Below, piece after piece: positions 36,152-38,109 of a stretch of 64,000 bases of DNA. The stretch comes from Ignisphaera sp. GTDB taxonomy: Archaea > Thermoproteota > Thermoprotei_A > Sulfolobales > Ignisphaeraceae. A model generated the notes under the pieces. It saw nothing but the letters and a program-made list of their open reading frames with translations, did not search any database and was not told where the DNA came from. A program made the translations under genes and the position numbers. How positions within the stretch are numbered: position 1 is the first letter of the stretch; the number at the start of each line of letters is the position of its first letter. Location of the stretch: positions 108,930 through 172,929 of the forward strand of contig JAWAHS010000002.1 of the NCBI GenBank assembly GCA_038889075.1, in the 5' to 3' direction.

Positions 36152-36649
36152 ATGGCAGAGTACATATCTTTGAAGAGAATTACTACTAGAGCGATGAGTG
36201 AGCTACTAGCTTTAGTACTAGGTATAGCAATAACGGTGGCTGTAGGAATGACGCTCTACACATTCATACCAAACTATCTAACTTCAATGCAGCAACAACA
36301 GAAAATAGCCCTAGTAGTCCACGACGTCTTTTCGGTAAGTAGCAGTGAAGCTATATTAACACTATCTATAAGAAATCTTGGTACAAAGGAGGTAAAGGCA
36401 GTAAATATAACCATGCTATCGCCCGTAAATTTAAATGTCGAGTTAATAGCGCCTAGCATCAAGTATAAGGTAGTAAACTCTACGCTAGGAATAGATAAGC
36501 TGGGTTTGCCTCCAGGACATGAAAGCATACTAACAATTCGATTGAAGGGAAGCGATATAAGCGTCGGATCCAAGGTTGTCATAACAGTCTCAGCCAACTA
36601 TATAGATGGTAGTACAGCATCGGCATCGGTACAAGCTCTCATAGTCTAA
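36152..36649 (+). CDS. archaeal type IV pilin
   Basis: Class III signal peptide KRITTRA|MSELLALVLGIAITVAVG; IRN.G motif; beta-rich C-terminal domain. Confidence 0.82.
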   Translation: MAEYISLKRITTRAMSELLALVLGIAITVAVGMTLYTFIPNYLTSMQQQQKIALVVHDVFSVSSSEAILTLSIRNLGTKEVKAVNITMLSPVNLNVELIAPSIKYKVVNSTLGIDKLGLPPGHESILTIRLKGSDISVGSKVVITVSANYIDGSTASASVQALIV

Positions 36650-36714
36650 TCATGATAAAATATCTAGGTAGACCAATGTTTTTTTATATTACGGCATTGC
36701 TATATTTCATGTTC

Positions 36715-36730
36715 AAGAAAAGTTTATAAA
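36715..36730 (+). promoter_or_regulatory. BRE/TATA promoter of tRNA-Tyr
   Basis: Purine-rich AAGAAAAG followed by TTTATAAA, ending 28 nt before the mature tRNA start. Confidence 0.75.
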
Positions 36731-36757
36731 ACTAGATAGCCTCTTCCTACAATAGAT

Positions 36758-36847
36758 CCCGCCGTAGCTCAGCGGCAGAGCGCCCGGCTGTAGTGGGGCA
36801 GGGCTGTAGATACCGGGTGGTCGGGGGTTCAAGTCCCCCCGGCGGGA
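36758..36847 (+). tRNA. tRNA-Tyr(GTA) with an 18-nt intron at 37/38 (36794-36811)
   Basis: Acceptor CCCGCCG/CGGCGGG+A; D arm GCTC..GAGC; anticodon stem CCCGG/CCGGG with CTGTAG; T loop GGTTCAAGTCC; BHB-compatible junctions; CCA not encoded. Confidence 0.96.
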
Positions 36848-37044
36848 TTTTAAATCTCCATCGTATTTCACTCTGATCACCATGTTATTAGAAATTTGTT
36901 TAAAATCATTTCTGATCATATAACATTTCCAATTCTGAAAGAACTACCATTTCTTTGAATAATTTACTAGTAAACTATCTAAATGAAACTCAGTTATCAA
37001 GAGATTAAAATTTAGGAAGACAGATTATAATATACGAAGATTTA

Positions 37045-37101
37045 ATGATGATGGAGGTGATCTCAGACCCTCCTAGGGATGATGGAAGATCAACCATCTG
37101 A
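37045..37101 (+). ncRNA. box C/D sRNA (guides match 16S rRNA 3' end and, weakly, 5' end)
   Basis: C ATGATGA 37045-37051; guide TGGAGGTGATCT; D' CAGA 37064-37067; CCCT-CCT-AGGG stem; C' ATGATGG 37079-37085; guide AAGATCAACCAT; D CTGA 37098-37101. Confidence 0.8.
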
Positions 37102-37155
37102 GGTAATTAGTCGAGTATACATTAGGGTCGCATAGATGAATTGTAACGGTATTTT

Positions 37156-37204
37156 TCAGACCATGAAAGTGTCATCATGTATCAGCTCCTGCCAGTAACA
37201 TCAT
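37156..37204 (-). ncRNA. box C/D sRNA, convergent with the one at 37045-37101
   Basis: Minus strand reads ATGATGT-TACTGGCAGGAG-CTGA-TAC-ATGATGA-CACTTTCATGGT-CTGA: near-canonical boxes and two 12-nt guides. Confidence 0.88.
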
Positions 37205-37485
37205 AAAAGCTTACGATCCAATACATCTACTACAATCTTGTCACTGTATTTGGATTTAAAAATTTTGTGCGACATCTCTTTCGATAAACTTACAGAGTGT
37301 TTGAATTTATCTAAGGCATATTATCAATGGTGTGAAATAGCAAATATTTAGTTATCCAATTTAATAATATAAGCTAATCAGTTAAATAATATCTCTACCT
37401 ATAGACCATGTGATATGGCATGTATAATATGTATAGGGGATGAGATGCTATCAGTATATAAGCCTCTTCTAAATAAAATATATCG

Positions 37486-38109
37486 TTGGTGATAGATGTG
37501 GGGCTCGTTAGGAGAACAGGTCCTGGAACAAAGTTGAAGGGTAGGAAGGTTGCTATAATAGTGGCAAATGAATTTGAAGATGTGGAGCTACTCTATCCAT
37601 TTCTAAGACTTAGCGAGGAAGGGGCTGAGGTAATAATCATGCCTGTTAAAACGGGTCTCCATCCACGGCCAGCAATTTCTGAAAAGCCTGTAACTGGTAG
37701 ATTTGGTACTCCGATACCGTTGATGGTGTTTGGAGAGGGTGAAAGGTATGTTATAAAGAGTTTGGATGAAGTTAAGCCTGGGGAAATAGACGCTCTAATA
37801 ATACCAGGAGGGTTCTCACCCGATTCACTACGTATAAATGAGAAAGTTCTAAGATTTGTAAAGGACGTATATGATGCAGGCAAGATAATTGCAGCCATAT
37901 GTCATGGACCGCAGGTACTAATTTCTGCAGGTCTTGTAAAGGGTAAGAAGGTTACTAGCTATAAGGCAGTAAAAGATGATCTAATAAATGCCGGTGCCAT
38001 GTTCGTTGACGAGCCAGCTGTAAGGGATGGTAATATAATTACCGGTAGGGTTCCCGATGATCTACCTGAATTTTGTCAGCTAATAATAGAAGCACTATCT
38101 TCAAAGTAG
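37486..38109 (+). CDS. pfpI: PfpI/DJ-1 family intracellular protease/deglycase; start may be GTG 37498
   Basis: FED.EL, LIIPGG.SPD.LR, AAICHGP, DGN.IT.R.P.DL. Confidence 0.92.
   Translation: MVIDVGLVRRTGPGTKLKGRKVAIIVANEFEDVELLYPFLRLSEEGAEVIIMPVKTGLHPRPAISEKPVTGRFGTPIPLMVFGEGERYVIKSLDEVKPGEIDALIIPGGFSPDSLRINEKVLRFVKDVYDAGKIIAAICHGPQVLISAGLVKGKKVTSYKAVKDDLINAGAMFVDEPAVRDGNIITGRVPDDLPEFCQLIIEALSSK

Follow-up and report, generated by a model that had tools for sequence, protein, structure and literature searches.

Positions 37,045 to 37,101 (plus strand) of the 64,000-nucleotide stretch of DNA analyzed here (the window) carry what is, as judged from its sequence, a genuine and conserved archaeal methylation-guide sRNA of the box C/D class that is predicted to be expressed. 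Its two guides are complementary to the opposite ends of the 16S rRNA of the same organism, an Ignisphaera sp. with a genome (G000) of 1.95 Mb in 25 contigs and a G+C content of 39.4%. The explanation we prefer, at a probability of roughly two in three, is that the RNA is an ordinary double methylation guide, which would direct the formation of Cm1533 and Um13 (E. coli numbering) on nascent or precursor 16S rRNA.

An earlier note on this DNA had described a complete C/D'/C'/D layout, and each box and each guide is indeed located in the interval. In 5' to 3' order on the plus strand, box C (ATGATGA, 37045-37051) is followed by the 12-nt D' guide TGGAGGTGATCT (37052-37063), which is complementary to the 16S 3' end GGAUCACCUCC, by a degenerate box D' (CAGA, 37064-37067) that keeps the GA, by an 11-nt D'-C' loop CCCTCCTAGGG (37068-37078), by box C' (ATGATGG, 37079-37085), by the 12-nt D guide AAGATCAACCAT (37086-37097), which is complementary to the 16S 5' end GGUUGAUC, and by box D (CTGA, 37098-37101). 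The layout and the boxes were read directly from the sequence; the loop was delimited from sequence and fold and may form a mini-hairpin of 4 bp. The terminal boxes agree with the archaeal forms RUGAUGA and CUGA, boxes D' and C' enclose a short loop and retain their GA in degenerate surroundings, the guides measure 12 nt each, the length of 57 nt from box C to box D compares with an expected size of about 50-70 nt, and the fifth base upstream of box D or D' is paired at both guides. The non-consensus form of box D' (CAGA) and box C' (ATGATGG) is a point against the dual-guide reading. Beyond the boxes, the two 12-nt guides and the variable loop of 11 nt, the RNA contains no further sequence.

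A comparison with Rfam yielded, at gathering score, only the neighboring tRNA and no curated C/D family for 37045-37101. Below threshold, the best model for the interval was sR47 (15.9 bits, E 0.19), which aligned via the boxes only. Because the C/D families of Rfam are guide-specific, this non-match is no argument against membership in the C/D class. The neighboring tRNA gene (59.2 bits in Rfam) contains an insert and is located at 36757-36848 on the plus strand (90 nt); ARAGORN labels it 'tRNA-???' with the anticodon unassigned, and contigs of other organisms pile up on it in metagenome runs.

The genes for the proteins expected of a methylating particle are present in the genome: fibrillarin (341.5 bits) and a Nop domain/Nop5 protein (250.5 bits) are encoded side by side on contig C17. 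The sRNA would assemble with L7Ae, Nop5 and fibrillarin. Contigs of the metatranscriptome run X17 cover positions 36300-36849 and 37508-37700 and none of 36864-37474, a result which is uninformative for an RNA of 57 nt.

Both guides were scanned against the organism's own 16S rRNA (contig C19; start ATACCGGTTGATCCTGCC, end GGATCACCTCCT), its 23S rRNA and 44 tRNAs, and the two ends of the 16S rRNA ranked best. The D' guide pairs with positions 1495-1505 of the own 16S rRNA by 10 Watson-Crick pairs and one G-U pair (11 contiguous), in agreement with the pairing to the 3' end that the earlier note had proposed; the second-best site has 9 pairs in a row, of which 3-4 are G-U. Position 5 of this guide faces the C of GGAUC, i.e. 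C1499 of the own 16S rRNA, and the earlier assignment of the D+5 position to the C of GAUC is thereby borne out. C1499 corresponds to C1533 in E. coli numbering when the fragment positions given in the accessible text of PMC5389701 are used. Between the 16S and 23S genes, contig C19 shows a run of N and, after it, the 16S 3' end and the spacer start once more, an arrangement that probably reflects either faulty scaffolding or masking.

The best site of the D guide is GGTTGATC at positions 6-13 of the own 16S rRNA, with 8 contiguous Watson-Crick pairs and one more pair past a mismatch; the runner-up site also has a run of 8, but two of its pairs are G-U. The 8-bp match to the 16S 5' end, in the region of helix 1 and the central pseudoknot, had been claimed before from the window and holds on the organism's own rRNA. 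Position 5 of the D guide faces the first U of GGUU, which is U8 of the own 16S rRNA and which we take to be U13 in E. coli numbering. On the same assumed numbering, the guide covers nt 11-18, a segment comprising helix 1 and two of the three bases (17-19) of the pseudoknot. In G000 the guide is mismatched at its positions 1, 2 and 11. Genome-wide, GGTTGATCT, the target of the D-guide core, is found at 22 sites against an expectation of about 15, and besides the reverse complement of the guide itself only three of these sites lie outside long ORFs; CCGGTTGATC is found at the 16S 5' end and once within an ORF, and nowhere else. At about 90 °C eight D-guide pairs may not suffice, which counts against the dual-guide reading.

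A second C/D sRNA gene (37153-37208, minus strand) is convergent to the first and scores 29.4 bits (E 2.7e-4) with the snoPyro_CD model, below gathering. On the own 16S rRNA, its D' guide fits best at 12-20 (UCCUGCCGG; 8 Watson-Crick pairs and one G-U pair) and its D guide at 48-58 (9 Watson-Crick and 2 G-U pairs). From these sites and that of the D guide of 37045-37101, two neighboring sRNA genes are both aimed at the 5' domain of the 16S rRNA. The second gene is also found downstream of the two-guide homologue in three other genomes (G006, G007 and G015).

Homologues of the two-guide RNA were sought by BLAST in 41 related genomes and by a strict two-guide pattern in 351 genomes of the class. 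The strict pattern recovered the RNA from G000, from 16 of the other 25 family members and from one of the 52 genomes of family f3, with no occurrence in the other 16 families of the class; the reversed control gave no match in the 351 genomes. Four further genomes of the family carry the two-guide RNA with one substitution in the D' guide (GGAGGTGAAC), which brings the family total to 20 of 25. The single genome outside the family, G240 (f3), is a metagenome-assembled genome of 83% completeness whose copy shows the family-specific A at position 11 of the D guide, and its two-guide RNA could represent a transfer or mis-binning. Eight other f3 genomes contain the form GGATCAACC with a different partner guide.

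All 18 genomes of the strict pattern set have the same D' guide core GGAGGTGATC, and the D-guide core AGATCAACC is kept in 17 of the 18; the exception, G012, has AGATTAACC (C to T), by which a G-U pair with the target G is retained. Box C (TGATGA) is constant in the 18 parsed sequences (G000 and 17 homologues), as the search patterns require, and the constancy of box D (CTGA), which the finding and parsing patterns likewise demand, is no independent observation. An alignment of 12 sequences shows variation in the flanks, in the internal boxes and in the loop (3-16 nt), with TGATGA, GGAGGTGATC, AGATCAACC and CTGA unchanged. The D' boxes of the homologues read CGGA, CCGA, GGGA, CTGA and similar, at the same spacing of 12 nt (a few are ambiguous by 1-3 nt), and the C' boxes read ATGATGA, ATGAAGA or ATGACGA; these internal boxes are closer to the consensus than those of G000. 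Two strain-level DNA runs contained no variant within 37045-37101 but had variants in both flanks, including one at the base immediately 5' of box C. Since the cores are conserved and the flanks are not, and since reversed controls gave 0 matches in 351 genomes and 1 in the 401 genomes of the scan for the D' guide described below, the two-guide feature exceeds what chance would produce.

Among the 18 sequences the two bases of the D guide beside box D are AT (6), AA (1), AG (2), GT (2), GA (2) or GG (5), and a G beside box D extends the match to 9 or 10 contiguous pairs, the five GG sequences reaching 10. For G008 the guide of 10 pairs was confirmed on its own 16S rRNA, which starts GCGATACCGGTTGATCC. 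Position 11 of the guide is an A throughout the family (a T in two genomes), although the target has a C, and this fixed loss of a pair counts against the dual-guide reading.

The origin of this guide becomes apparent when it is sought separately. The combination of a C' box, the 5'-end guide and box D was found in 96 of the 351 genomes of the class, with no control match. It is present in 46 of 63 genomes of family f10, 6 of 8 of f7, 4 of 7 of f15, both genomes of f14, 9 of 52 of f3 and 18 of the 25 in the organism's own family, and in none of the 47 genomes of f13. In other families its usual form is GGATCAACCGG, which complements CCGGTTGATCC perfectly over 11 nt, and this match to the 16S 5' end settles what the D guide targets. 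The D guide of 37045-37101 is best read as a worn copy of that guide in which positions 1, 2 and 11 have been lost. The weakness of the 8-bp match, against which the earlier note had cautioned, is real insofar as G000 has eight pairs only, but the doubt about the target that went with it is removed by the full-length complement in other families. In all 31 loci with the 5'-end guide that were examined (L187-L216 and L018) the partner D' guide differs from the anti-Shine-Dalgarno (anti-SD) guide, one example being GGCCCGATAAA. Searchable text contained no record of the 5'-end guide or of U13 methylation in any archaeon, the latter being a further point against the dual-guide reading, and a literature search with GGAUCAACCGG and related strings returned no 5'-end guide, the only matches being to AGAUCAACC in unrelated papers; supplementary sRNA tables such as those of Dennis 2015 may list either guide.

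The loss of 3 of the 11 ancestral pairing positions in G000 raises the alternative that the RNA is effectively a single guide, with the D' guide (Cm1533) alone active and the D guide a decaying remnant of the GGATCAACCGG guide. The bases beside box D, which vary freely in the genus (AT, AA, GA, GG), fit such a decay. However, the core of 8-9 nt is conserved across 18 genomes and its sole change preserves the pairing, strain variants avoid the RNA, and the pattern used finds no further 5'-end guide in G000. We regard a single active guide as improbable.

The D' guide, too, is older than the family. It is complementary to the anti-SD tail GAUCACCUCC at the 16S 3' end, and its 10-nt core is that of the D guide of Pyrococcus furiosus sR26. 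In a phylum-wide sample of 401 genomes, 14 have a box C followed by this guide (one control match). With the patterns applied here, the family of Sulfolobus yielded no example of either guide (0 of 15 genomes for the D' guide, 0 of 47 for the D guide). A scan of public species genomes gave at least 119 such stretches, of which 80 are listed (31 archaeal and 49 bacterial, the latter inspected by eye only). The archaeal matches listed come from MAGs of Desulfurococcales and Sulfolobales, from Thermoproteales, Geothermarchaeota and Nitrososphaeria, and from three Asgard lineages, and all 31 have the full C/D'/C'/D layout. Just three of these 31 listed anti-SD sRNAs carry the 5'-end guide; the others have about a dozen different D guides, whose target assignments are rough because G000 rRNA served as a stand-in for that of the other lineages. 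The Asgard carriers are Njord-, Heimdall- and Promethearchaeati MAGs (L105, L139 and L147), each with a different second guide. The anti-SD guide with the full layout also occurs in several other families of Thermoproteota (L054-L062), again with a second guide that differs each time.

An anti-SD guide as such is already known, from P. furiosus sR26 and from Nanoarchaeum equitans sR13. The former is a model RNA for the structure and kinetics of the box C/D RNP (Graziadei et al. 2016, PMC4836650; 2020, PMC7089733). According to the accessible text, CGGAGGUGAUCU beside CUGA is its D guide, which methylates the substrate D GUAGAUCACCUCCG in vitro (PMC4836650). As in 37045-37101, the guide core is GGAGGUGAUC and the guide has 12 nt beside its box (CUGA in sR26); the same core at the same spacing gives the same predicted target, the C of GAUCACCUCC. 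Unlike in the RNA studied here, where it occupies the D' site, the anti-SD guide of sR26 is located at the D site, and its partner guide GUGAUGGGCGAA is unrelated to the 16S 5' end. In the accessible parts of the two sR26 papers the target is not discussed as the 16S tail, and the terms '16S rRNA', '16S' and 'Shine' occur 0 times (PMC4836650, PMC7089733).

N. equitans sR13 is a C/D sRNA that, like 37045-37101, pairs one guide with the anti-SD tail (nt 1531-1540), where Am1534 has been measured; its binding was proposed to slow down the folding of the 3' region of the 16S rRNA (Seistrup et al. 2017, PMC5389701, accessible text). It differs in its sites, which are A1534 and, for the second guide, A1408 in helix 44, as compared with the predicted C1533 and the 5' end in the present case (PMC5389701). 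The same text reports Cm1533 as measured in Ignicoccus hospitalis and attributes it to 'a presently unknown sRNA' (PMC5389701). A union of the 5'-end guide and the anti-SD guide on one RNA was not found in the searchable literature.

The two guides are also complementary to each other (TGATCT/AGATCA and ATGG/CCAT), and the earlier note had cautioned that the RNA might for this reason be a closed hairpin or a switch. The complementarity is present, with a minimum free energy of the free RNA of -16 kcal/mol, but the closed structure does not stand: the fold is no more stable than that of shuffled sequences (z-score 0.06; 98 of 200 shuffles as good), and over 12 sequences the 10 pairs of the guide-guide hairpin are without any compensatory change, with one of these pairs disrupted in 8 of the 12. 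The mature ends of the own 16S rRNA are themselves complementary (5' UGAUCC with 3' GGAUCA, and four more pairs past one U-U mismatch). Since the ends match in this way (TGATCC/GGATCA), any guides against both of them necessarily pair with each other, and the pairing of the guides is automatic. The hairpin or switch reading was therefore rejected. So was the proposal, also raised before, that GGAGGTGATC is the ribosome-binding site of a translated small ORF: an ATG does follow the SD-like stretch, at the start of box C', but across 18 genomes the ORF is unconserved, with a length of 1-50 aa and a spacing of 2-97 nt. That the interval is no sRNA at all, for either of these reasons, has in our estimate a probability close to nil.

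Pairs of guides with distant sites are known from other archaea as putative chaperones. Dennis et al. (2015) proposed this role for guides on opposite strands of helices 28 and 30 (PMC4644070), and long-range double-guide sRNAs, for example N. equitans sR15 and sR17, have been proposed as rRNA chaperones (PMC4644070; Breuer et al. 2021, PMC7994747; accessible text in each case). The sites of these RNAs are far apart in sequence, as are those of 37045-37101, and are mutually pairing or close in secondary structure. The published cases, however, lie inside domains of the 16S or 23S rRNA, and none of those in Table 3 of PMC4644070, as far as its accessible text goes, lies at the extreme 5' and 3' ends. 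The targets of 37045-37101 are about 1490 nt apart and come close only in the predicted precursor, beside the processing stem (a fold of truncated RNA at 37 °C). A two-strand fold of the precursor flanks, subject to the same temperature and truncation, predicts that the processing stem extends into the mature 16S ends.

On this basis the RNA could act as a clamp or chaperone, one RNP capturing both ends of the pre-16S rRNA at the base of the processing stem, blocking early formation of helix 1 and the central pseudoknot as well as the pairing of the two ends, and masking the anti-SD tail up to a late stage of maturation; methylation would be of minor importance, or would not take place at the D site. 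One target is no more than about 25 nt and the other no more than about 10 nt away from the predicted processing stem, pairing between the mature ends is likewise predicted, and the D guide presumably extends over positions 11-18 (E. coli numbering), which comprise helix 1 and the larger part of the central pseudoknot strand. The combination of guides has been retained in 20 of 25 family genomes plus G000. A weakened D guide would fit an RNP that binds but turns over inefficiently; for sR26, a dependence of D-site release on the D' site is described (PMC4836650/PMC7089733, accessible text). Precedents are the chaperone proposal of Dennis 2015 (PMC4644070) and the description of N. equitans sR13 as an RNA-based checkpoint that retards folding (Seistrup 2017, PMC5389701), both as given in the accessible text. 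Against a clamp, the partner guides are unrelated in 28 of the 31 anti-SD sRNAs (among the matches listed) and in all 31 of the 5'-end sRNAs, the RNA has no extra sequence for contacts with the spacers, and the supporting cofold is a prediction at 37 °C on truncated RNA. As each guide is widespread with unrelated partners, their union is a lineage-specific combination and no obligate unit, and because both guides assort freely an obligate clamp is disfavored. We consider a clamp unlikely.

The comparison with U3 leads in the same direction. Eukaryotic U3 is a box C/D-class RNA as well, and the predicted pairing of 37045-37101 with the central pseudoknot strand at the 16S 5' end is a likeness between the two. 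In its build and role U3 is different: it is much longer, has hinges to the 5' ETS, B/C boxes and dedicated proteins, and guides no methylation. Such additional ETS-pairing segments and a non-modifying role are features of U3 that 37045-37101 does not share, both of its guides obeying the geometry of methylation guides. On the 5' end of the small-subunit rRNA, U3 prevents early formation of the central pseudoknot, and a review states, in its accessible text, that U3 and modification-independent snoRNPs 'are not known' in archaea (PMC8339473). The suggestion of the earlier note that one RNP clamps the 16S ends and masks the anti-SD tail is not upheld, given guides that each work with unrelated partners and an RNA that lacks any sequence resembling the U3 hinges; a clamp, U3-like or anti-SD-masking role of 37045-37101 is possible but unsupported. 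A bolder version is that the family fused two ancient guides into one particle that seizes both pre-16S ends and masks the anti-SD tail until release, a methylation-competent analogue of U3, and this we hold to be quite unlikely. Just as doubtful is its corollary, in which helix 1 and the central pseudoknot are held open as a late-assembly checkpoint and the D guide of 8 pairs is tuned for timed release, not for catalysis.

In the preferred reading, that of an ordinary double methylation guide, two ancient modules that assort freely among archaeal sRNAs would have come to lie on one RNA in this family. On nascent or precursor rRNA, the D' guide would direct ribose methylation of C1533 in the anti-SD tail, and the D guide that of U13 at the 16S 5' end, in this species probably with lower efficiency. 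As long as it is bound, the RNP would keep helix 1, the central pseudoknot strand (two of its three bases) and the anti-SD tail single-stranded and, because the 16S ends are complementary to each other, would also hold these ends apart. Keeping the ends open and apart is a consequence of guiding, with no demonstrated separate function.

If the ordinary reading alone holds, the archaeal inventory gains one more annotated guide RNA. For the Cm1533 of the anti-SD tail, measured in Ignicoccus hospitalis and attributed to an sRNA that its authors did not know, the two-guide RNA is a concrete candidate guide family. The anti-SD guide reaches from Thermococcales to TACK and Asgard lineages, and a further guide of wide occurrence, directed at the extreme 5' end of the 16S rRNA, comes to light in 96 of 351 genomes of the class. 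With both guides united on one RNA, this family lends itself to testing the old idea of double guides as folding chaperones, and an RNA that binds both termini of the pre-16S rRNA would be the simplest place to seek an archaeal U3-like RNP.
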